From: Elusimicrobia bacterium CG1_02_56_21
GTDB lineage: Bacteria; Elusimicrobiota; Elusimicrobia; Elusimicrobiales; UBA9959
DNA: 64,000 nucleotides
Assembly (NCBI GenBank): GCA_001871115.1
Contig: MNUR01000085.1
Location: forward strand, 22,060-86,059
Reading direction: 5' to 3'
Shown: in pieces, positions 3,925-58,166 of the stretch
How positions within the stretch are numbered: position 1 is the stretch's first letter
Layout: each line of letters begins with the position of its first letter
Translations under genes and position numbers: made by a program
The notes under the pieces: generated by a model
Database searches by the model: none
What the model was told of the DNA's origin: nothing
What the model saw: the letters and a program-made list of their open reading frames with translations, nothing else

Positions 3925-3949
3925 TGATTTTAATACCGGGGCTGACCTG

Positions 3950-4062
3950 GGAGCCTGTCCGACATAGGCAATTTCGCCTGCAATTGCCGCTTTTGTCCTG
4001 CGCTTCGGCTCGGCTCCAAAATAGACAATTTCGTCATGAAAGCCTAATGTCGGACAGGCTCC
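3950..4062. repeat. Nested palindromic intergenic repeat, family A, copy 1 (short form)
   Basis: 16-bp perfect terminal inverted repeats GGAGCCTGTCCGACAT / ATGTCGGACAGGCTCC. Inner palindrome GGCAATT...AATTGCC. Second copy at 57925-58089. The right end overlaps the TAG stop of the upstream response regulator gene. Confidence 0.8.
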
Positions 4063-4442
4063 TAGTGCCGGCAGAAGCGGGAGACCAGCGAGGTTAACTC
4101 TTCCACGCGCGAGGGCTTATAGAGCACGTCCACGGCCCCGATAGCCGAAGCCTTCCCGTCCATACCGGGCATGCCGGTAATAATAGCCACGGGGATAGCG
4201 GCCAACCCGGGGTCTTCCTGCTGAACTTTCCTGAATTCCCAACCGGTCATTACCGGCATCATCAGGTCCAGCAGGATAAGACCCGGGGGCAGGGCGGAAC
4301 CTCTGAGGTAGTCCAGCGCTTCTTTCCCGTTGCCGGCAACTGCGGTCTTATAGCCCTGGCCAACCAGGGTAGAGCTGATCAAGTCGCAGACATTCTTATC
4401 ATCGTCCACTACAAGAACTGTTGAATTCCCCGCTTTCGTCAT
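4062..4442 (-). CDS. Single-domain response regulator (CheY-like receiver)
   Basis: VLVVDDDKNVCDLI...LILLDLMMPVMTGWEF...YKPSRVEEL receiver motifs. The ATG at 4442 is preceded by GAGGG. The longest ORF extends to 4484. Confidence 0.85.
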   Translation of the reverse strand: MTKAGNSTVLVVDDDKNVCDLISSTLVGQGYKTAVAGNGKEALDYLRGSALPPGLILLDLMMPVMTGWEFRKVQQEDPGLAAIPVAIITGMPGMDGKASAIGAVDVLYKPSRVEELTSLVSRFCRH

Positions 4443-32704: not shown

Positions 32705-32872
32705 TTAGTTCTCCTGTTTTTTAAAGACCAAGGTCTTATTTGTACTGCGCGTATGTGCCGCAAAAGGCAATACAGTACCAATACACTAGCAAACATGCGG
32801 CAACCGCGTATTAATGTAAAGCAATTGCCGCATTGATTTAAGTTAACCGGTTTAAGCGCGGTCAGCCGCTAA

Positions 32873-33139
32873 GGGCTTGTTAAAGAATAACTGACGCATT
32901 TGGCTGAGCTGATTTTGGAGCGAGCCGAAGCGGCGTGAAGCGACACGTACTCCATGTACTTTAGCGGAACGCCGCAAAGGCGCAGCCCAAAAGCGGCTCA
33001 GCCCCCCGGGGGAGGCCCATCTTTGAACCGGCTGCCGCGTTGCTCCTCACTCACAGACCACCGGTATGCTCGTTCATCGCGCCTTGCATCCGGATCAAAT
33101 ATGGGCCTCCAAATGCGTCAGTTATTATTTAACAAGCCC
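32873..33139. repeat. MITE-like nested palindromic element, family C. It shares its core with family A.
   Basis: 31-bp terminal inverted repeats GGGCTTGTTAAAGAATAACTGACGCATTTGG (32873-32903) and 33109-33139, with 1 mismatch. Inner palindromes GCTGAGC...GCTCAGC and GGAGGCCCAT...ATGGGCCTCC. The core TTTTGGAGCGAGCCGAAGCG...GCGCAGCCCAAAAGCGG matches the reverse complement of family A. Confidence 0.8.
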
Positions 33140-33852
33140 TAACGCCGTGAAACCTGCTCCAGCCTGGCTTTGTCTTTCACCGCGACGTTCCGGCCGGCGA
33201 CGGAGATCCAGCCTTTCTTGCGGAATTCGGCCAGCAGGCGGCAAAGAACTTCCGGGGAGGTCCCGAGCATTTTGGCCAGGTCTCCCCTGGTCTCCGGGAA
33301 CTGTACGCTGGCAGAGCCCTTGGCAACGGCCCTCTCCACTATATATTTAGCCAAGCGTCCTCTTACGGTTTTAAAGCCGAAGTCCAGCAGCTGCTCCTCG
33401 GAGCGGCCAAGCTCCGCGGCAAAGCGGGTCAGCAGGGCGCGGCAGACCTGAGGGATCTCCAGGAAATTTTTCTCGAAATAGGCCCCGTCCAGGAAACAGA
33501 TCCGGCAGTCTTCCAGCGCTTCGCCAGTGCCCAGATAGGCTTCACCGGCAAGGAAAGAGCGGTCCCCCAGCAGGGCCGGGGCCTCTATCACACGGGGAAT
33601 GCTGGAATGAAGCCCCGTATCCGTCCTTATTATTTTAACCCGGCCTGTACAGAGGAAATACACGCCGAAAGGGCGATTGCCCTCGTAAAAAATAATATTG
33701 CCTTTGCGGTAATCATTGGTTATCCTCTTTTTGCAGAAGCCCTCCCATACCGCGTCAGGAACTGCGGCGAAGACCGGCATTTTCAGCATCGGGCATTTGC
33801 ACTTTGCCGCTTCAAAGGTTTCACACTTACACTTCGGACTGATAGTTTTCAT
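33139..33852 (-). CDS. Crp/Fnr-family transcriptional regulator with an N-terminal Cys cluster
   Basis: cNMP-binding-type beta-roll (IIFYEGNRPFGVYFLCTGRVKI) and C-terminal HTH (RGDLAKMLGTSPEVLCRLLAEFRKKG). N-terminus has SPKCKCETFEAAKCKCP. Confidence 0.85.
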   Translation of the reverse strand: MKTISPKCKCETFEAAKCKCPMLKMPVFAAVPDAVWEGFCKKRITNDYRKGNIIFYEGNRPFGVYFLCTGRVKIIRTDTGLHSSIPRVIEAPALLGDRSFLAGEAYLGTGEALEDCRICFLDGAYFEKNFLEIPQVCRALLTRFAAELGRSEEQLLDFGFKTVRGRLAKYIVERAVAKGSASVQFPETRGDLAKMLGTSPEVLCRLLAEFRKKGWISVAGRNVAVKDKARLEQVSRR

Positions 33853-35094: not shown

Positions 35095-36198
35095 TTATTT
35101 TTTAGCTTTTGCCTTGGGTTCATAGAGGCAGTACGGCTCCTGGCCCATGTAGTCGCCGGTGGTCCCGAAAGCCCTGGCCCGGCAGCCGGCGCAGATAACC
35201 CGGTATTCGCAGACCCCGCATTTTCCTTTAAGGGCGTCCGGGTCGGTGATGGTCTTGAAGACCTCGGAGTTCTCCCAGACCTCCCAGAAATTCTGTTTCC
35301 GCAGGTCCCCGGCCGGCACGGGCAGATAACCGCAGGGGAAAACCTCCCCCTTGTGGGAGATGAAGGCGATAGCGCTGCCGGCCAGGCAGCCGCGCATCTG
35401 GGCGGTCCGGCCCGCGAACTCGGGGCTGGAAGCGGCAACTTTCTGGCGGACTATCCTGGTCTGGTGCGGCGCGCAGGTGGCGCGTATCTCCATGCCGCCG
35501 GGCGCGGGATGAGCGTGACCGTGGCCATGGGCCGGGTGCCCGGCGGCGCCCTGCTGCACCATCAGCCAGTTGAGGAATTCCTCGTAGTTCTCGGCGCCGA
35601 GGCGCATCGCGTCTGGCAGCTCGGCGCCGCAGCCCACCGGGACCAGCAGGAAGAAATGCAGGGCGTCCACCCCCAGCTCGCGGGCCAGTTTCACCACCGC
35701 GTCGCGCTCGGCCACGTTCCTGGTGCTGACCGAGCAGTTGATCTGGGTGGAGATGCCGGCGGCCCTGAAAAGCTTGAGGGCGTTCACGGCCTTGTCGAAA
35801 GAGCCTTTCTGGCCGCGGAACTCGTCGTGCGTGGAAGCTATCGCCCCGTCCAGGCTGACGGAGATCCGGTGCGGGCCGTAGGAGGCCAGCATTTTGGTCA
35901 TCGCTTCGTCCACGAGCGCGCCGTTGGTGGCGATGGCGAAGGGGATGCCTTTCTCCTTGGCGAAGGCGAGCAGCTCGGGCAGGTCTTTCCGCATCAGCGG
36001 CTCGCCGCCGGAAAAGACCACCATCGGCGGGCGGCCTTCGCCTTTGAGCGAGAGCAGGATAGCCTTGAATTCGTCTGTGGGGAGTTCATATAGTTCATCG
36101 CCCCTCTCGGGGACATTGGTCCGGCGGCAGTGCACGCACTGCAAGTTGCAGCGGGAAGTGGTTTCCCAGAAAACTAACCTCGGCGGATTTCTTTTCAT
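35095..36198 (-). CDS. NirJ/AhbC/AhbD-family radical SAM enzyme with a SPASM domain and a His-rich insert
   Basis: CNLQCVHCR motif. C-terminal CGVCEYRVICAGCRARA. Insert GHPAHGHGHAHPAPGG. The ATG at 36198 is preceded by AAGGA. The longest ORF starts at 36225. Confidence 0.75.
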   Translation of the reverse strand: MKRNPPRLVFWETTSRCNLQCVHCRRTNVPERGDELYELPTDEFKAILLSLKGEGRPPMVVFSGGEPLMRKDLPELLAFAKEKGIPFAIATNGALVDEAMTKMLASYGPHRISVSLDGAIASTHDEFRGQKGSFDKAVNALKLFRAAGISTQINCSVSTRNVAERDAVVKLARELGVDALHFFLLVPVGCGAELPDAMRLGAENYEEFLNWLMVQQGAAGHPAHGHGHAHPAPGGMEIRATCAPHQTRIVRQKVAASSPEFAGRTAQMRGCLAGSAIAFISHKGEVFPCGYLPVPAGDLRKQNFWEVWENSEVFKTITDPDALKGKCGVCEYRVICAGCRARAFGTTGDYMGQEPYCLYEPKAKAKK

Positions 36199-36231
36199 GG
36201 TGGTGTCCTTCAAGTAGCGTATCAAAGTCTG

Positions 36232-36361
36232 GGGCCGTCAGGTGTTCTGCCCTGCGAACCCTGGAAGAGGAAACCCTTGCGTCGGTTTTCCCCCGCCCGG
36301 GAAAATTAGGGCGGGGCCCCCTTTCCGCAAAGGGTTCACAGGGCAGAACACCTGCCGGCCC
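36232..36361. repeat. Structured palindromic intergenic element, family B, copy 1 (candidate cis-acting RNA)
   Basis: Outer arms 36239-36254 CAGGTGTTCTGCCCTG and 36339-36354 CAGGGCAGAACACCTG (perfect 16 bp, extendable to 36232/36361 with 1 mismatch). Conserved core GAACCCTGGAAGAGGAAACCCTTGCGTCGGTTT...GGCGGGGCCCCC..TTCCGCAAAGGGTTCA is shared with 41143-41251. Confidence 0.75.
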
Positions 36362-36365
36362 GGGC

Positions 36366-37652
36366 TCATAAAAGCAGGGCCTGTTCCGCGGCTTTCAGCG
36401 TCGCTTCTATGTCCGCGGGCTTGTGGGCCGTGGAAATGAAGCAGGTCTCGAACTGGCTGGGCGGCAGGTAGACGCCGCGCTCAGCCATCGCCCAGAAATA
36501 GTCGGCGTAGCGCTTCGTATCGCAGCCGGCGGCGCCGGTCCAGTCTTTCAGCGGGCCTTTAGAGAAGAAAAGGGTGAACAGCGAGCCCACCCGGTTAAGA
36601 GTAAGCGGCAGGTTCCCCTCCCTTATAATAAGGCGCAGGCCTTTCTCCATGGCCTGGCCGGAAGCCTCCAGCTGTTTATAAACTCCAGGCTTTGAAAGCT
36701 TTTTGATCGCGGCGCAGCCGGCCGCCATGGCCAGGGGATTGCCGGAAAGCGTGCCGGCCTGGTATACCTTCCCGGCCGGGGAAAGGTGCTTCATTATTTT
36801 CTTGCCGCCGCCGTAGGCGCCGACTGGCAGGCCGCCGCCTATTATCTTCCCGAGAGTGGTCAGGTCCGGCTTGATGCCGTACAGGCCCTGCGCGCCGCCG
36901 AAGCCGACGCGGAAGCCGGTGATGACTTCGTCGAAGATGAGGAGAGCGCCGGTAGCGGTGCAGGTCTTCCTCAGCGCGGCCAGGAAGCCCGGCTCCGGAA
37001 GCATCAGGCCCATATTGGCGGCTACGGGCTCCACTATCACGCAGGCGACTTCTTTGCCGCTGCGCTTCATATAGGCCCGGAAGCCTTCGATATCGTTATA
37101 TTCCAGCGAGACGGTATTGCGCGCGAAAGCCGCCGGAACGCCGGGGCTGGAAGGAGAGCCGAAAGTAGCCGCTCCGGAGCCCGCTTTCACCAGCAGGGAA
37201 TCGGCGTGGCCGTGGTAGCAGCCGGTAAATTTGACTATTTTATCCCGGCCGGTATAACCGCGGGCCAGCCGGATGGCGCTCATTACGGCCTCGGTGCCGG
37301 AGGAGACGAAACGCAGCTTCTGGATAGAGGGCAGGGCTTTCTTTATCATTTCGGCCAGCACGGCTTCGGCCTCGGTGGGAGCCCCGTAGGAAGTTCCTTT
37401 GCCGATGGCGCCCGTGATAGCCTTCTGTATGTCCGGGTCGGCGTGGCCGAGTATCATCACGCCCCAGGAAGTGACATAGTCCACATAAGAGTTCCCGTCC
37501 ACATCCTTAAGCCGCGAGCCTTTGGCTTCTTTTATAAAGAGAGGCGTTCCGCCTACGGCGTTAAAGGCCCTGACGGGGCTGTTGACCCCTCCGGCCAGAT
37601 GCTTAAGGGAATAGTTCCAGAGTTTTTTGGATTTATCAGTTTTGAGTTTCAT
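36366..37652 (-). CDS. hemL: Glutamate-1-semialdehyde 2,1-aminomutase
   Basis: Class III aminotransferase with a typical HemL N-terminus (GGVNSPVRAF) and FDEVITGFR. Confidence 0.95.
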   Translation of the reverse strand: MKLKTDKSKKLWNYSLKHLAGGVNSPVRAFNAVGGTPLFIKEAKGSRLKDVDGNSYVDYVTSWGVMILGHADPDIQKAITGAIGKGTSYGAPTEAEAVLAEMIKKALPSIQKLRFVSSGTEAVMSAIRLARGYTGRDKIVKFTGCYHGHADSLLVKAGSGAATFGSPSSPGVPAAFARNTVSLEYNDIEGFRAYMKRSGKEVACVIVEPVAANMGLMLPEPGFLAALRKTCTATGALLIFDEVITGFRVGFGGAQGLYGIKPDLTTLGKIIGGGLPVGAYGGGKKIMKHLSPAGKVYQAGTLSGNPLAMAAGCAAIKKLSKPGVYKQLEASGQAMEKGLRLIIREGNLPLTLNRVGSLFTLFFSKGPLKDWTGAAGCDTKRYADYFWAMAERGVYLPPSQFETCFISTAHKPADIEATLKAAEQALLL

Positions 37653-37683: not shown

Positions 37684-39024
37684 TTATAACTTCAGCGCGT
37701 CTACAAAATCAGCGAGTTCTTTATCGGTTCCGTCGAAAGGGGGCATGGTAGCTGCGGGATTCCTTAAGATGTTCTTCAGCTCTTCTTTGGTGTGCAGCTG
37801 CAGGGGTTTCTCCAGGTTAGGGCCGAAAGTACCGCCTTCGCCGTTATAAGTGTGGCAGACCAGGCAGCCGCGCGCTTCCAGCTCCACTTCCACATCGTGT
37901 TTTGAAGCCGATGGTTTAACCGGCGCGGACTTGGCCGCGGCGGTTTTAACGGGTTCGGGTTTAGGCGCCTGCTTTGCCGGAGTTTTCACTTCTGCGGCAG
38001 CCTTGGTTTCTGCAGCCGCAATCCCGGCTTTTTTAGGCGCGGCTACCAGAGCCCCGGTCATATACATATGCCCGTATATCAAATAAGGCTTCCTGGCCCG
38101 CTCGCGTGTGTAAGCTCCGAATGAAAAAGCTGTGAGCGCGGCCAGGCCGCCGGCGAGCAGAACTTTCCGCTTTGTCTTACGGGAGAGCAGGTAAACGGCG
38201 GAACAGGCAACGGCTATCGTGGCCAGGCTGGCCATGGGCCAGAAGAATTTGGCTACCGGGCCTTTTACTATGCTGTCGAAGACCGCCAGATTTATGTATT
38301 TAAGGGTGAATAAATAAGACAGGCCGCTTAAAGGCTGGAGCAAAATAGCCACGGCGAAGATGGTTCCGCAATAATCCAGCATCCAGGAATAATAGCCGGC
38401 GTCGGCGGCCGGCGCTTTACGCAGTTTAATGAAAGCGTAGATATAGCCGAACATAGCTGAATTTATCAGGCAGGGGAGCAGCACATGGGTGCTGGAGGCG
38501 GCGAAGCTGGGATTAAAGACCGCGTTCATAAGACGGGGATCCTGGAAATAGGTACCCGGGGTCAGCATAAAAGACCAGGCGGCGTTTATGACCAGCGCCG
38601 CGGCTATACCGGAAGCCGCCGCTACCCCGCCTATGAAGATATGCCGGCCTTTATTTGGGTTATCCCAGGTTCCGCCGTAGAGCGCGGTAGAAGCCATCAT
38701 TACCAGGAAGAGAACCGCTTCAAGGAAAAGCGGCCAGAAGAAGATATTGTAAAGTTTTGAAGTGAACTCGGGGAAAAGCCCGATGAGGAGAACCACAAAA
38801 GTAACGCCCAGCACGCCGTTTATCTTCATCATGTCGGAAAGGAAATTTATATAACCTTTCGCGAACCTGTCATGAAAAGCGCTGTTCTTCCTGTAGCCTA
38901 TCCATTCCCCGGTAAAAGCCAGGAAAACACCCCCAACCGCCACGAAAGCGAAAAAAACATGGGTAACAATGACCAGCGCCATTACCAGGGAATTACCGAG
39001 GAAAGGGAAATTTATATGGGGCAT
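37684..39024 (-). CDS. Cytochrome bd subunit I (CydA)-like membrane protein fused to a C-terminal monohaem cytochrome c domain
   Basis: The N-terminus LVMALVIVTHVFFAFVAVGG...FWPLFLEAVLFLVMM resembles CydA helices 1-3. About 9 TM helices, an Ala/Lys/Pro linker, then CLVCH...MPPF. The family call is tentative. Confidence 0.5.
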   Translation of the reverse strand: MPHINFPFLGNSLVMALVIVTHVFFAFVAVGGVFLAFTGEWIGYRKNSAFHDRFAKGYINFLSDMMKINGVLGVTFVVLLIGLFPEFTSKLYNIFFWPLFLEAVLFLVMMASTALYGGTWDNPNKGRHIFIGGVAAASGIAAALVINAAWSFMLTPGTYFQDPRLMNAVFNPSFAASSTHVLLPCLINSAMFGYIYAFIKLRKAPAADAGYYSWMLDYCGTIFAVAILLQPLSGLSYLFTLKYINLAVFDSIVKGPVAKFFWPMASLATIAVACSAVYLLSRKTKRKVLLAGGLAALTAFSFGAYTRERARKPYLIYGHMYMTGALVAAPKKAGIAAAETKAAAEVKTPAKQAPKPEPVKTAAAKSAPVKPSASKHDVEVELEARGCLVCHTYNGEGGTFGPNLEKPLQLHTKEELKNILRNPAATMPPFDGTDKELADFVDALKL

Positions 39025-39531: not shown

Positions 39532-40118
39532 ATGGGAAAGAAAGTCTTTATCTTGAACATTGTTTTCACCGGGAAGGAATAACATTTCTCCACCCCGGGC
39601 AGCCGCCTGAAAACGGCTATCTGCCGGTTCACCCCGGCCATGGTTCCCCGCACTCCTACGGTAAACCAAAGGTTCATTTCCCCCGCCCTTTCATAACAAT
39701 GGGTAACTCCGGGGAATTTAGAAATTTCTTTAGCTACGGCCGCCAGCCGGGAGGGTTTCACCCGCGCACCGGCGAGCGTGGAAGAAAAACCCAGCTTGCG
39801 GGTTTCAAAGCTGCCGCCTATCCTGCGGACCACGCCTTTTTTCTTATAAGTTTTAAGCACTTTAAGGACATCGGCCCCCGTCACGCCTATCCCGGCGCCC
39901 AGGGCTTCAAAAGGGCGGCTGCAGGCGGGAATATCCGTCTGGGCCGCGTCCAGGACCAGTTTTTCTATTCTTGTAGCCCGAATTCCGCTTGCGGAATTCC
40001 CCGCGCAGCGGGCGGAAGGCCCAGCGCTATGCGCGCCCGGCCCGACGGGGCGTATGCCTCCCGCAGGGCGCCCGCTATGCGGGCGGTAAACTTCACCAGA
40101 AGTTTTCAGGCTAGCCAT
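39528..40118 (-). CDS. Sirohaem decarboxylase subunit (AhbA/AhbB family) with a low-complexity N-terminal extension
   Basis: LVLDAAQTDIPACSRPFEALGAGIGVTGADVLKVLKTYKKKGVVRRIG and THCYERA. The only ATG overlaps the hemB end by 13 nt. Confidence 0.7.
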   Translation of the reverse strand: MASLKTSGEVYRPHSGRPAGGIRPVGPGAHSAGPSARCAGNSASGIRATRIEKLVLDAAQTDIPACSRPFEALGAGIGVTGADVLKVLKTYKKKGVVRRIGGSFETRKLGFSSTLAGARVKPSRLAAVAKEISKFPGVTHCYERAGEMNLWFTVGVRGTMAGVNRQIAVFRRLPGVEKCYSFPVKTMFKIKTFFPI

Positions 40119-41092
40119 TTGGCGGCGTCCTTGGCGTGGTAGGTTATTATCATGTCGGCCCCGGCCCTTTTAATAGAGGTCAGGATCTCCAGGACCATGG
40201 CTTTCTCGTTTATCAGGCCTTTCTGCGCCGCCGCCTTCACCATCGAATACTCGCCGCTCACATTGTAAGCCGCGGTCGGGAACTGGAATTTTTCTTTTAC
40301 AGCGCGCAGGATGTCCAGGTAGGCCAGGGCCGGCTTCACCATTACGATATCGGCGCCCTGCCTCACGTCGAGCTCCACCTCGCGCAGCGCCTCGAGATAA
40401 TTGGCCGGGTCCATCTGGTAGGTTTTCCTGTCCCCGAACTGCGGGGCGGACTGGGCCGCTTCGCGGAAAGGCCCGTAGAAAGCGGAAGAATATTTGGCGG
40501 CGTAGGAAAGTATGCCTACGTCCTGGAAACCTTTCCCGTCCAGGGCTTTCCTTATCGCCCCGACGCGGTTGTCCATCATATCGGAAGGAGCGACCAGGTC
40601 GGCGCCGGCTTCGGCGTGCACCAAAGCTTCTTTGACCAGCAGCTCGAGCGTGCGGTCATTGTCCACCAGCATTTCGCCGGCGCGGTTCTTCCTGACGACG
40701 CCGCAATGCCCGTGGCTGGTGTATTCGCAAAGGCAGACGTCGGTCATCACGGCGATATCCGGCACGGACTTCTTTATCAGCCTGACGGCCTCCGGCACGG
40801 GGCCCCCGGGGTCATAGGCTTCTTTCCCGAGCGGGTCTTTTTTAGAGGGCAGCCCGAAAAGTATCAGCGAGTTTATGCCGAGGGCGCGGCATTTCGCGGC
40901 TTCGGCCGCCGCCTCGTCCACGGACAGGTGGAAGCAGCCGGGCATGGAAGAGATCTCTTTTTTGTATTTTTTACCGGGGACCACGAAAAGCGGGTAGACG
41001 AAATTGTCGGCGGTAACGCGGGTTTCCCTGAACATGTCGCGGGCCCATTTCAGGTTCCTGAGTCTGCGAGGGCGGGCTGAATCGGAAAGCAT
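40106..41092 (-). CDS. hemB: Porphobilinogen synthase (delta-aminolevulinate dehydratase), Zn type
   Basis: CLCEYTSHGHCG zinc site, SDMMDNRVGAIR, MVKPALAYLD. Confidence 0.95.
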   Translation of the reverse strand: MLSDSARPRRLRNLKWARDMFRETRVTADNFVYPLFVVPGKKYKKEISSMPGCFHLSVDEAAAEAAKCRALGINSLILFGLPSKKDPLGKEAYDPGGPVPEAVRLIKKSVPDIAVMTDVCLCEYTSHGHCGVVRKNRAGEMLVDNDRTLELLVKEALVHAEAGADLVAPSDMMDNRVGAIRKALDGKGFQDVGILSYAAKYSSAFYGPFREAAQSAPQFGDRKTYQMDPANYLEALREVELDVRQGADIVMVKPALAYLDILRAVKEKFQFPTAAYNVSGEYSMVKAAAQKGLINEKAMVLEILTSIKRAGADMIITYHAKDAAKWLA

Positions 41093-41142
41093 GTGGTCTT
41101 CTCCTTGAAGTCTGGCGGCTGTTAGCCTGCGGGTTCGGGCCT

Positions 41143-41251
41143 CCAGGGAACTTCCCCCGTGAACCCTGGAAGATGGAAACCCTTGCGTCGGTTTCCCCCC
41201 GTCAGGCGGGGCCCCCCCTTCCGCAAAGGGTTCACGGGGGAAGTTCCCTGG
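41143..41251. repeat. Structured palindromic intergenic element, family B, copy 2
   Basis: Perfect 25-bp arms CCAGGGAACTTCCCCCGTGAACCCT (41143-41167) and AGGGTTCACGGGGGAAGTTCCCTGG (41227-41251). Same core as copy 1, different outer arm sequence. Confidence 0.75.
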
Positions 41252-41261
41252 CGGACCTCCA

Positions 41262-42776
41262 CTAACGGGCTTTCTTAAAATATCCCTGCGCCGCTTCCAC
41301 GAGGCCCGGGATAGTGTAATCCTTCGCTTCGAAATCGGGTTTAAAGCCCTCCGATTTCATGGTGCCGGAAGTGATGGGGCCGATGCTGCCCATGGCCACG
41401 CCTTTAAGAAGTTTCTTGTCGGCGCCCTTGAAGCTCTCCATAAAACCGGTAACCGTGGAAGAGCTGGTAAAGGTGACAAGGTTTACCTCCCCTGCCTGCA
41501 GCAGCTTCTTCAGTTCCGGGAAATTGCCCCTGTCGGGAACGGTATTATAGGTGGGGATCTCGGTTACCAGGGCGCCGGCTTTTTTAAGGCCCGCATTAAG
41601 CATATCCCTGGCCATAGCGGCCCGGGGCAGGAGTATTTTCTGACCTTTCACTTTACCCAGCGCTTTCAGAATTGACTCGGAGATATACTTTTCCGGGACC
41701 AGGTCGGCATTTATGCCCCTGGCGCGCAGCGCCTCCGCCGTAGCGGGCCCGATAGCGGCCACTTTCGCGCTCCCGAAGCGGCGCGCGTCCAGGCCGAGCT
41801 TATTAAGCCGGTTAAAGAAAACTTCCACGCCGTTGGCGCTGGTAAAGATTACCCAATTGTAGCCGCCCAGCCCTTTTATTTCTTTATCCAGTGCGGAAAA
41901 AGTTTTAAGAGGTTCTATTCTTATTGAAGGGAAAACAATAACTTCGGCGCCCAGGCCGGTGAATTGCTGAGCAAGGGCGCTGGCCTGCTCCCGGGAGCGG
42001 GTCACCACTATTTTCCTGCCGAAAAGCGGCCTTTTCTCGAACCAGGCCAGCTGCCCGCGCAGGCCGGCCACGCCGCCCACCACGGTGACGGCGGGGGCTT
42101 TTATGTCCGCCTTGCGGGCGAGTTCGGCTATAGTAGAAAGGGTCCCGGAAAGGGATCTCTGCCGGGGCGTGGTCCCGTTGGAAACGATAGCGGCCGGGGT
42201 GGAGCCTTTCAGCCCCGCGGCCATGAGCTTGGCGGAAATGACGTCGAGGCTTGAAACGCCCATCAGGAAAACCAAAGTCCCGCCGCCGGAAGCCAGGCTG
42301 TCCCAGGGGAGTTTAAGCTCGCCATTCTTCTGGATATGCCCGGTAAGGAAGGTCACCATAGGCGCGAAAGAGCGGTCCGTGACCGGGATGCCGGCGTAAG
42401 CCGGCGCGGCCACGGCCGAGCTGACCCCGGGAACTATTTCAAAAGGTATTTTAGCGGCCGCGAGGTCCCTGGCCTCTTCCCCGCCGCGTCCGAAGATGAA
42501 AGGGTCCCCGCCTTTAAGGCGCACTACCGTGCCGCCTTTTTTGCCGAGGCGGACCAGGAGGGCGTTGATATCCTCCTGCTCCATGGCGTGTACCGCGCCG
42601 CGCTTTCCCACATAAAATTTTTTGGCTCTCTCCGGCGCCATGTTCACAAAATCGGGGTTGGACAGGGCGTCGTAAACCACATAGTCGGCCTTGCGCAGGC
42701 ACTCCGCGCCTTTGATCGTCAGCAGGCCGGGATCGCCGGGGCCGCCGCCCACCAGGTACACTTTGCCTTTCGTCAT
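41262..42776 (-). CDS. cobA-hemD: Uroporphyrinogen-III C-methyltransferase / uroporphyrinogen-III synthase fusion (CobA-HemD)
   Basis: N-terminal SUMT motif GKVYLVGGGPGDPGLLTIKG...VVRLKGGDPFIFGRGGEE. The C-terminal roughly 250 aa are HemD-like. Confidence 0.9.
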   Translation of the reverse strand: MTKGKVYLVGGGPGDPGLLTIKGAECLRKADYVVYDALSNPDFVNMAPERAKKFYVGKRGAVHAMEQEDINALLVRLGKKGGTVVRLKGGDPFIFGRGGEEARDLAAAKIPFEIVPGVSSAVAAPAYAGIPVTDRSFAPMVTFLTGHIQKNGELKLPWDSLASGGGTLVFLMGVSSLDVISAKLMAAGLKGSTPAAIVSNGTTPRQRSLSGTLSTIAELARKADIKAPAVTVVGGVAGLRGQLAWFEKRPLFGRKIVVTRSREQASALAQQFTGLGAEVIVFPSIRIEPLKTFSALDKEIKGLGGYNWVIFTSANGVEVFFNRLNKLGLDARRFGSAKVAAIGPATAEALRARGINADLVPEKYISESILKALGKVKGQKILLPRAAMARDMLNAGLKKAGALVTEIPTYNTVPDRGNFPELKKLLQAGEVNLVTFTSSSTVTGFMESFKGADKKLLKGVAMGSIGPITSGTMKSEGFKPDFEAKDYTIPGLVEAAQGYFKKAR

Positions 42777-43324
42777 ATTTGCCTTAGAAGTCTGAAGTAG
42801 GCCTGTTTGTCGGCCTTCGCTTTGGACGCGAGCATTTTAACGCGCAGCTGCCGCAAAGCCTCAACTTTTTCAGCGAAAGCGCCGCCGTAGGTTTTCTCCA
42901 GCTGAAGGCGGATCTTTTTCGCCAGGGCCGGGCTGGCCCCGCCGGTAGAAACGGCTATGGTCAGGGGCCCGTTCCTGAAAACCGCGGGCACTATGAAATT
43001 GCAGAGGGCCGGCCTGTCCACCACGTTCACCAGCGCCCCGCTCCTGGCCGCCGCCTCGCCTACCAGGGCGTTCACTTCTTCGGAATCTGTGGAGCAGACT
43101 ACCAGGGCCGCGCCTTTCAGGTCCGAAAGCCTGAATTTACGCCTGAAAAACCTGACCTGCCCTTTTTCGCCGAGCTTTGCGAAACCCGGGTGTAAAAGGG
43201 GAGCCACGACCTTAACTTGCGTAGCGCCGGACTTAAGCAGCGTTTCCGTTTTGCGGAACGCTACCTCGCCGCCGCCTACCACGAGGCATGGCTTCCCCTT
43301 TATGTCAAGGAACACCGGGTACAA
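42773..43324 (-). CDS. Precorrin-2 dehydrogenase / sirohydrochlorin ferrochelatase-type protein (SirC / CysG N-terminal domain)
   Basis: FLDIKGKPCLVVGGGEVAFRKTETLLKSGA...NVVD...IAVSTGGASPALAKKIR. 4-nt overlap with cobA-hemD. Confidence 0.85.
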   Translation of the reverse strand: MYPVFLDIKGKPCLVVGGGEVAFRKTETLLKSGATQVKVVAPLLHPGFAKLGEKGQVRFFRRKFRLSDLKGAALVVCSTDSEEVNALVGEAAARSGALVNVVDRPALCNFIVPAVFRNGPLTIAVSTGGASPALAKKIRLQLEKTYGGAFAEKVEALRQLRVKMLASKAKADKQAYFRLLRQI

Positions 43325-51779: not shown

Positions 51780-51854
51780 TGGTGCGCCCGGCAGGAATCG
51801 AACCTGCACTAGAAGCTTCGGAGGCTCCTGTGATATCCATTTCACCACGGGCGC
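51780..51854 (-). tRNA. tRNA-Arg (anticodon CCG) with encoded CCA
   Basis: The reverse complement folds as GCGCCCG-TG-GTGA..ATCAC-A-GGAGC-CTCCGAA-GCTTC-TAGT-GCAGG-TTCGATT-CCTGC-CGGGCGC-A-CCA. The acceptor stem is 7 bp and the anticodon loop is CT-CCG-AA. Confidence 0.9.
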
Positions 51855-57894: not shown

Positions 57895-57924
57895 TTATGG
57901 GTAAATTTGAGGATCAGAGGACTA

Positions 57925-58089
57925 GGAGCCTGTCCTACATAGGCAATTTCGCCTGCAATTGCCGCTTTTGTCCTGCGCCTTCGCGCCGCTCAACTCACAA
58001 CCTCCGTCGAGAGTGCTCGTCTCGCGGCGCTTTGGCTCGGCTCCAAAACAGACAATTTCGTCATGAAAGCCTTATGTCGGACAGGCTCC
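57925..58089. repeat. Nested palindromic intergenic repeat, family A, copy 2 (long form)
   Basis: Same termini as 3950-4062 (GGAGCCTGTCCTACAT / ATGTCGGACAGGCTCC, 1 mismatch) and the same flanking modules, plus an additional central segment of about 52 bp. Confidence 0.8.
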
Positions 58090-58166
58090 TGGAAGGCGAG
58101 AAGACTAGAAAGACGAGGAGCTCCTTACGGACCAATCCGCCAGTCTTCTATTCCTCAAATTCTCTA

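Follow-up and report, generated by a model that had tools for sequence, protein, structure and literature searches.

Probable MITE-type hairpin repeats at two gene junctions of a haem operon in an uncultivated Elusimicrobia species

Two structured elements lie between genes of the haem operon of Elusimicrobia bacterium CG1_02_56_21, and we consider both, with a probability of about 0.8, to be short, non-coding, hairpin-forming dispersed repeats of the MITE type that populate the intergenic spacers of Elusimicrobia. They came to attention in a 64,000-nt stretch of contig MNUR01000085.1 (positions 22,060 to 86,059), referred to here as the window, in which the original prediction had proposed them as a candidate structured RNA of the haem operon. 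The operon is without a dedicated structured RNA regulator; what it carries is two mobile-repeat insertions. The repeat unit would consist of a subfamily-specific stem of 25-35 bp closed by a nearly invariant three-way junction, made up of a UUGCGGAA strand, a GC hairpin and an AAACC-GACGCAAG-GGUUU hairpin. The searchable literature holds nothing on MITEs or repeats of Elusimicrobia, and the family appears to be an undescribed MITE-type intergenic hairpin repeat with REPIN-like covariation. It is worth recording, as its copies occur in at least 21 species of uncultivated Elusimicrobia and interrupt MAG assemblies, many contigs ending at one.

Results

Two related elements in a sirohaem-dependent haem operon

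The ahb/hem operon, which is of the sirohaem-dependent (ahb) type, lies on the minus strand, and the minus strand is the mRNA sense strand for both elements. It begins with sirC (42773-43324) and a fused cobA-hemD gene (41262..42776; NCBIfam TIGR01469 and uroporphyrinogen-III synthase models), followed by copy 2 of the element, the porphobilinogen synthase gene hemB (40106..41092; NF006762, E 7e-150), ahbA, ahbB and a cytochrome bd-like gene. Next come the glutamate-1-semialdehyde aminomutase gene hemL (36366..37652; NCBIfam TIGR00713, E 1.9e-184), copy 1 and a gene for an ahbD-like radical SAM haem b synthase (35095..36198; TIGR04545, E 4e-105, below the curated cut-off), all on the minus strand. 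The ahbD start codon, an ATG at 36198, was set by the 367-aa gene call in identical assemblies. After the ahbD-like gene the operon continues with an ahbC/nirJ1-like radical SAM gene and then a Crp/Fnr regulator.

Copy 1, a long stem with a three-way-junction tip, occupies 36229..36360 on the minus strand between hemL and ahbD and is matched over its full length by our covariance model R1 (137.4 bits, E 2.9e-29). Copy 2 occupies 41134..41256, also on the minus strand, between cobA-hemD and hemB (123.7 bits, E 3.7e-26). Both are about 130 nt long and identical in 83% of aligned columns, with a conserved core of about 80 nt in common. The claim that two copies share such a core was confirmed by this alignment and by R1 itself, which was built from 44 relatives and finds exactly two sites in the 64-kb window (137 and 124 bits). 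The distances to the neighbouring genes had also been given exactly: the hemL stop codon (36366-36368) is 4 nt from 36361 and the ahbD ATG 33 nt from 36232, and copy 2 lies 10 nt from the cobA-hemD stop codon (41262-41264) and 50 nt from the hemB start at 41092. The element that had been quoted is real, but in the transcribed sense it reads as the reverse complement of the letters quoted.

Read in the RNA sense, the outer stem of copy 1 is formed by a 5' arm at 36331..36361 and a 3' arm at 36232..36262 (inverted repeat I3, recovered also by folding), and that of copy 2 by arms at 41227..41257 and 41137..41167 (inverted repeat I2), all on the minus strand. Each of the arms first described, CAGGTGTTCTGCCCTG and CCAGGGAACTTCCCCCG, pairs with its own partner without a mismatch; the perfectly complementary stem of either copy measures 25-30 bp, and the full arms extend to 31 nt at 94% complementarity. 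Inside the stem of copy 1 lie the junction hexamer UUGCGG (36325..36330, minus strand), which is invariant in 44 of 44 aligned copies; hairpin 1, in which CCCCGCCC and GGGCGGGG fold around a 10-nt AU-rich loop (36291..36316, minus strand); and hairpin 2, an exact match to the invariant 20-mer AAACCGACGCAAGGGTTTCC (36269..36288, minus strand). The 3' tail (CCCCAGACUUUGAUACGC...) that follows resembles the CCCGACU...CAUCUCGCGG tail of relatives without terminal inverted repeats and runs into GAAGGA, the native Shine-Dalgarno sequence of ahbD (36199..36228, minus strand). Copy 2 contains the same 20-mer as an exact match (41175..41194, minus strand), together with a short-loop form of hairpin 1, CCCCGCC UGA CGGGG, identified from the sequence and the alignment (41197..41211, minus strand). 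Hairpin 1 is the variable-length hairpin of the family, and in relatives its loop may be as short as 3 nt or hold insertions of more than 100 nt. The 20-mer occurs twice in the window against 0.02 occurrences expected, and the element, at about 130-170 nt, contains no ORF.

Folding of both copies, one of the checks proposed for the element, gave structures well beyond those of shuffled sequence. The minimum free energies are -95.7 kcal/mol for copy 1 and -87.1 kcal/mol for copy 2. Copy 1 has z-scores of -8.7 (minus strand) and -7.9 (plus strand) and copy 2 of -5.3 and -5.9, respectively, and none of 200 shuffles folded as stably. A scan of the whole window with Rfam 15 at the gathering threshold matched a tRNA gene only (51783-51854, minus strand).

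The repeat is dispersed among unrelated genes of Elusimicrobia

The 20-mer AAACCGACGCAAGGGTTTCC was scanned against one genome per bacterial and archaeal species, 596 Gb in total, in which about one chance match is expected. It was found in at least 119 stretches from at least 21 MAGs, all of them Elusimicrobia among the matches listed, and MAG JACQPH01 accounted for at least 53 stretches with at least 59 copies. Model R1 detects the copies that contain the 20-mer and, in addition, diverged, truncated and rearranged ones. Many copies sit at contig ends, as expected of repeats that break assemblies, and a search for a phage or plasmid origin gave 0 matches in viral contigs, phages and plasmids.

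Every copy examined is intergenic. Between co-directional genes, as judged from heuristic gene calls, about 29 copies are in the sense orientation and about 12 antisense, a bias and not a fixed orientation, and some copies lie between divergent genes. The adjoining genes include those for AspRS, an M20 peptidase, an AcrB-type pump, EtfB, PurM, a methyltransferase, fumarase, a histidine kinase, FliG and a phospholipase D protein, none of them linked to haem. The family is short, non-coding, multi-copy and dispersed, as MITEs are, and does not show the association with one pathway at orthologous positions that characterises riboswitches.

This distribution bears directly on the proposed link with haem. 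A haem- or iron-responsive cis-regulatory RNA that tunes the downstream haem genes, either by sensing a metabolite or by binding a regulator, would agree with the strong conservation of the structure and with the presence of two copies within 5 kb in one haem operon, both in sense and both between cistrons. These are the only two copies in the 64-kb window, and their clustering in one operon, which exceeds what random scatter predicts, counts against a dispersed repeat. However, the same element adjoins the genes for AspRS, M20 peptidase, AcrB, EtfB, PurM, fumarase, histidine kinase and FliG, occurs in dozens of copies per genome in both orientations, some of them with MITE ends and target duplications, and is missing from the orthologous haem operons of five relatives. 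The haem link was thus not borne out, and dozens of copies placed regardless of gene function, which had been named beforehand as the finding that would speak against it, are what the related genomes contain. In effect, the haem-responsive reading is refuted by the family distribution and we give it almost no credence, which removes a tempting false lead in this window.

Some spacers hold a copy in more than one species: four MAGs share an occupied hisS-aspS spacer, and two or three share occupied M20, RND, etfB, purM and fumarase loci. These shared spacers often hold different subfamilies. When the stems at L058 and L100 are compared, 12 of the 25 pairs have both partners changed and no pair has only one, a pattern that re-insertion or conversion fits better than slow change in place. 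In MAG JAVHRY (L041, L080) a copy is present at both junctions flanking aspS, namely hisS-aspS and aspS-next gene, which makes a second case, like that of the haem operon, of two copies bracketing the genes of one cluster. Loci L041 and L023 carry a nested insertion of about 110 nt in hairpin 1.

Stem covariation is family-wide and strand-asymmetric

Structure statistics were taken on 44 diverse copies, for which RNAalifold gave a consensus of a 25-pair outer stem, a GC hairpin of variable length and an invariant AAACC/GGUUU hairpin with the loop GACGCAAG. As many as 22 of the 25 outer-stem pairs change on both sides, and 94.3% of the outer-stem cells are paired, a proportion that falls to 36-58% when the partners are slid by 1-3 columns. 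The observed covariation was reached by none of 500 shuffles. At the pair that closes the tip, G-C (19), U-A (13) and C-G (8) all occur. The covariance-model scan of the window and its relatives, another of the proposed checks, gave the two window sites and the dispersed copies described above.

Compensatory change in the stem had been taken to argue for selection on structure. That argument is sound within its limits. The covariation is real and extends through the family, but it is not diagnostic of a regulatory RNA. Compensatory changes on the two sides of a hairpin are common in REPINs (PMC3116915), and covariation therefore fails to tell a regulatory RNA and a mobile hairpin repeat apart. 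For the discovery of RNA motifs, strong covariation in a long stem is, taken alone, no proof of a regulatory RNA.

The exceptions to Watson-Crick pairing are unevenly distributed between the strands. Among the non-Watson-Crick stem cells, G-U outnumbers A-C by 55 to 11, with 25 copies leaning towards G-U and three the opposite way, and tandem A-G mismatches recur at one position of the stem. Together, the asymmetry and the A-G mismatches suggest that the fold is maintained in one strand, which in the window is the mRNA sense strand. As the G-U bias is seen also in copies that are antisense to their neighbours, the asymmetry is a property of the family and not of local transcription.

These observations can be set against a purely DNA-level palindrome, in which mutation, through template-switch repair or gene conversion, would keep the arms complementary with no functional single strand. 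In bacteria, imperfect inverted repeats are known to be corrected by template switching, a well-established mutational process reported by Ripley in 1982 and by the Lovett laboratory, and this offers a precedent for such an origin. It would also suit the many copies with perfect 25/25 Watson-Crick stems and the whole-stem swaps without one-sided intermediates seen between L058 and L100. Repair of this kind, however, predicts no strand asymmetry, contrary to the excess of G-U over A-C in both cells and copies; the A-G mismatches tolerated on one strand would be C-T on the other; and the invariant unpaired tip is left unexplained. We therefore regard a palindrome maintained at the DNA level as rather unlikely and prefer a MITE-type repeat. 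A further helix, stem B (GGAA/UUCC), was considered as a constrained element and rejected, as only 80% of its cells pair and A-U changes to A-G in 20 of 43 cells.

Inverted ends and target duplications mark mobile members of the family

In JACQPH01 and CAZYFL the element is about 170 bp long and has 14-nt inverted ends, GTAACTRCTCAGGT. Exact 8-bp target duplications accompany copies in these two genomes (CGGATAAA, TATTGTAC, TCATAGTC, CTTGCTTA and GAATAATC); the AT-rich target is duplicated exactly in 5 of 11 full-length copies and nearly exactly in two more. The same ends and duplications also bound unrelated small elements (L020 210-313, L081 787-917) and deletion derivatives that lack the core (L007, L022, L054). 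One type of end around unrelated contents is the signature of a transposase that recognises the ends alone. Inverted ends and 8-bp duplications in at least two genomes point to a DDE-type transposase and to cut- or copy-and-paste movement, and the duplications argue against a Y1 mechanism for those copies in JACQPH01 and CAZYFL. Presumably, an IS66-like partner would fit the GTAA ends and the 8-bp duplication.

At the loci examined, no pair of GTAACTRCTCAGGT ends encloses an ORF that could represent a cognate autonomous element, and about 800 kb of sequence flanking the loci contains neither a cognate transposase nor a multi-copy ORF. A DDE_Tnp_1 gene beside the haem operon in L124 was considered as the partner and rejected, as it has no matching ends. 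A larger mobile unit in MAG MGUG was likewise dismissed, the conserved sequence upstream of the copies there being another palindromic repeat and not a gene. Two other kinds of element were set aside: integron attC sites by reasoning and not by a formal test, given the 8-bp duplications and the lack of cassette arrays and of R'/R'' boxes, and retron msr/msd, as the element is multi-copy and comes without a reverse transcriptase gene.

At the window copies, no GTAACTRCTCAGGT terminal repeat was matched even when three mismatches were allowed, and the alignment of filled with empty sites revealed no recognisable target duplication around them. Copies in other MAGs are also without these ends and start near GGAGGGG, and such end-less copies finish in a tail, CCCGACUnnnCAUCUCGCGG, that is homologous to a sub-terminal part of the JACQPH01 element. 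Possible remnants of the ends are present in L015, L026, L058 and L100. One locus, in front of the M20 peptidase gene, is shared: in JACQPH01 the copy there still has complete ends and is flanked by a duplication, and in two other species the copies seem to keep only fragments of the ends. It is plausible that the end-less copies are immobilised descendants of the mobile unit, and the window copies would be among them, their putative membership of the mobile family resting on homology of the interior.

The haem-operon copies are recent and independent

HemL assigns the window to Elusimicrobia bacterium CG1_02_56_21, and both copies are present in three other assemblies of this species, in which HemL is identical. 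No R1 match was found anywhere in the orthologous haem operons of five relatives with HemL identities of 82-89%. The cobA-hemD/hemB and hemL/ahbD junctions measure 22 and 11 nt in P0002 (89% HemL identity), 78 and 26 nt in P0003 (87%), and 35 and 11 nt in P0007 (82%). In P0006 (85%) the junctions hold other inserts that do not match the model, and in P0008 (82%), for which the hemL/ahbD junction alone is covered, that junction spans 50-146 nt depending on the assembly.

Comparison of filled with empty sites places each element between the stop codon of the upstream gene and the preserved native Shine-Dalgarno sequence of the downstream gene, and in L122 and L124 the empty sites can be aligned with the window at the Shine-Dalgarno sequence and ATG of ahbD. 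The two copies differ from each other in the stem, the type of junction and the loop of hairpin 1, and in blastn comparisons the nearest relatives of each are copies in other genomes, not its partner in the window. As they represent different subfamilies with their nearest kin in other genomes, two independent insertion events are indicated. Judged from sequence, the haem-operon copies are young insertions of two different subfamilies, which would have entered two ahb/hem gene junctions independently in the CG1_02_56_21 lineage.

A third novelty of this operon is the cytochrome gene between ahbB and hemL (37684-39024, minus strand), which encodes 446 aa with an N-terminus like cytochrome bd subunit I and a C-terminus like a c-type cytochrome. 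It is found at this position only in the CG1_02_56_21 species; in the closest relatives only 3-5 nt separate ahbB from hemL (P0002, P0003), or the two gene calls overlap (P0007). Since the cytochrome gene and the two repeat copies are confined to this species, the operon has gained three insertions in this lineage.

Junctions of the haem operon are filled by other repeats elsewhere. In the relative with 85% HemL identity (L120 3790-9570), six junctions are each occupied by a different long palindromic or tandem-heptamer repeat, for example GTTATAGGGTTATAGAG..., and one insert has the right end of the JACQPH01 MITE, CTGAGTAGTTAC, as its terminus. With unrelated palindromes at six junctions, gene junctions in these genomes are evidently general landing sites for hairpin repeats. 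In P0008 the hemL-ahbD junction differs among L126, L127 and L128 despite identical HemL: L127 has a 48-nt insert containing a hairpin that is absent from L128, and L126 has a deletion that removes the start region of ahbD. These differences look like a strain-level presence/absence polymorphism.

The tip is conserved beyond the needs of mobility

The tip of the element keeps 96-98% identity between species in which four-fold sites agree at 58-77% and the surrounding spacer cannot be aligned, and across the same range of divergence the 20-mer AAACCGACGCAAGGGTTTCC is identical in at least 21 species. Conservation of this degree is far above what an interior mobilised by a transposase needs, and together with the shared occupied sites it gives a hint of a function beyond selfish spread. 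Two invariant segments, UUGCG in the 5' junction and CGCAA in the loop of hairpin 2, are complementary, and on this basis a UUGCG:CGCAA pseudoknot is possible.

Such features could belong to a new functional RNA module, in which the three-way-junction tip, formed by the UUGCGGAA junction, the variable GC hairpin, the AAACC-GACGCAAG-GGUUU hairpin and possibly the pseudoknot, would be spread by the MITE and kept by the host after decay of the ends, the stem needing only to pair. A small self-cleaving ribozyme, an RNA-processing signal and a protein-recognition signal are candidates for such a module. Apart from the conservation amid unalignable spacer and the complementarity of two invariant segments, it would find support in the long insertions at the tip of hairpin 1 and the extra hairpin after hairpin 2 in some relatives, as length expansions at two hairpin tips are seen in many ribozymes. 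The strand-specific G-U/A-C asymmetry with its recurring tandem A-G mismatches, the sites occupied in several species, such as hisS-aspS in four MAGs, and the retention of the interior where the terminal repeats have apparently decayed (L058 and L100 compared with L030) point the same way. Against this, an Rfam scan of the element at E <=10, including self-cleaving ribozymes, HEARO and IS605-orfB RNAs, returned sub-threshold microRNA-hairpin noise only, so that even at this threshold no known ribozyme or RNA family is matched. The pseudoknot has no covariation, both of its sides being invariant in the 44 copies; the diverged copies give no compensatory support, and the diverged, degenerate copy L002 breaks the pairing. 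Furthermore, different subfamilies at shared sites (L058 and L100) fit turnover or re-insertion over long retention, the G-U bias holds in antisense copies as well, and deletion derivatives without the tip persist. We thus consider a functional tip module improbable and of distinctly low standing. If the tip should nevertheless be one, the inverted pattern of conservation, with an invariant tip and a free stem and ends, would be of real interest.

Discussion

The MITE-type reading leaves the question of what two such insertions may do within the operon. One answer would be that they split it into separate transcription units as intrinsic terminators or attenuators, a role for which a very stable hairpin directly after a stop codon is suited. 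The tails that follow the stems, CCCCAGACUUUGAU and CCCGAACCCGCAGG, however, contain no U-tract, a terminator scan calls no site in either element, and copies in antisense and between divergent genes exist, which makes termination a highly improbable role. Promoter-like sites were not called by the scan within either element. A candidate promoter, TTGCGG-16 nt-TAATTT, in long-loop variants was rejected, as it is absent from short-loop variants, including copy 2, and was not called by the scan.

With no promoter, terminator or U-tract, read-through transcription is the simplest expectation. The MITE-type copies would accordingly be co-transcribed with the operon and fold in its mRNA as double-stranded stems of about 30 bp, each beginning 4-10 nt beyond the stop codon of hemL or cobA-hemD. 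Stems of Correia, ERIC and REP elements are substrates of RNase III, barriers to 3' exonucleases and, within about 15 nt of a stop codon, obstacles to ribosomes. In the haem operon, the generic outcome might be a stem that acts as a landmark for RNase III or exonucleases or as an obstacle to terminating ribosomes, and that uncouples neighbouring cistrons in their stability or yield. By analogy, an mRNA-hairpin effect on the output of the neighbouring cistrons, independent of haem or iron, would be the most likely consequence.

Among known systems, the Correia/NEMIS elements of Neisseria and the ERIC/IRU elements of enterobacteria, known from the work of De Gregorio, Mazzone, Di Nocera and colleagues, are MITEs of similar character, being intergenic, non-coding, 100-170 bp long and present in dozens of copies. 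Like them, the Elusimicrobia repeat has terminal inverted repeats and target duplications (here seen in JACQPH01 and CAZYFL), would form one long hairpin over the whole unit if co-transcribed, inserts between cistrons, and occurs in variants with deletions and nested insertions. Unlike Correia and ERIC, it is conserved least at its ends and most at its interior tip when species are compared, and its stem differs by subfamily with full compensation. Correia elements duplicate TA, in contrast to the 8 bp duplicated here, and processing by RNase III or RNase E has been shown for Correia and ERIC. For the Elusimicrobia repeat, such processing would be expected by extension.

The REPs found near stop codons in E. 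coli resemble the window copies in that a stable hairpin lies 4-10 nt after an upstream stop codon in a polycistronic unit. REP sequences reportedly stabilise mRNA in E. coli (Newbury et al. 1987), and REPs within about 15 nt of a stop codon are said to lower translation (Liang, Rudd and Deutscher 2015). The sequence, size and branched tip of the Elusimicrobia repeat are unrelated to those of REPs, and any such effect in the haem operon would be an analogy.

The resemblance to REPINs, the RAYT-mobilised REP doublets, lies in the dispersed intergenic hairpins of about 100 nt with common two-sided compensation (PMC3116915), and in both cases a single-stranded, strand-specific form is thought to matter. 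REPINs, however, are defined by conserved REP arms around a variable spacer, whereas the Elusimicrobia repeat shows the reverse, with arms that vary at 22 of 25 pairs and an invariant centre. Unlike the Elusimicrobia MITE copies, REPINs are not known to generate 8-bp duplications or to carry terminal inverted repeats, and no RAYT gene was seen at the loci examined here.

Several further repeats were noticed in the window and in the related genomes. Where the haem operon ends, shortly downstream of the Crp/Fnr gene, the window contains a MITE-like element (32871-33141) with 32-nt terminal inverted repeats, AGGGCTTGTTAAAGAATAACTGACGCATTTGG, that are 97% complementary and 205 nt apart, and with a second, nested inverted repeat at 33011-33110. 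A third small repeat occurs at 3946-4066 and 57922-58092, its two copies being 90-95% identical with inverted ends AGGAGCCTGTCCGACAT, and the copy at 57922-58092 has about 50 nt extra in the middle of the element. Outside the window, a palindromic repeat of unrelated sequence (...CTCGGCCTCGGCGCTACGCAAGCCTCGGCCTCGCGACGGTTTTGCTTGTCCTACCCCTGCGGTCTCC...) immediately precedes the element in L017 (2740-2900) and is seen also in L084, L094, L103, L037 and L063, so that the element and the CTCGGCCTCGGCGCTACGCAAGCCTCGGCCTCGCGACGGTTTTGCTTGTCCTACCCCTGCGGTCTCC repeat form BIME-like repeat mosaics in several MAGs.
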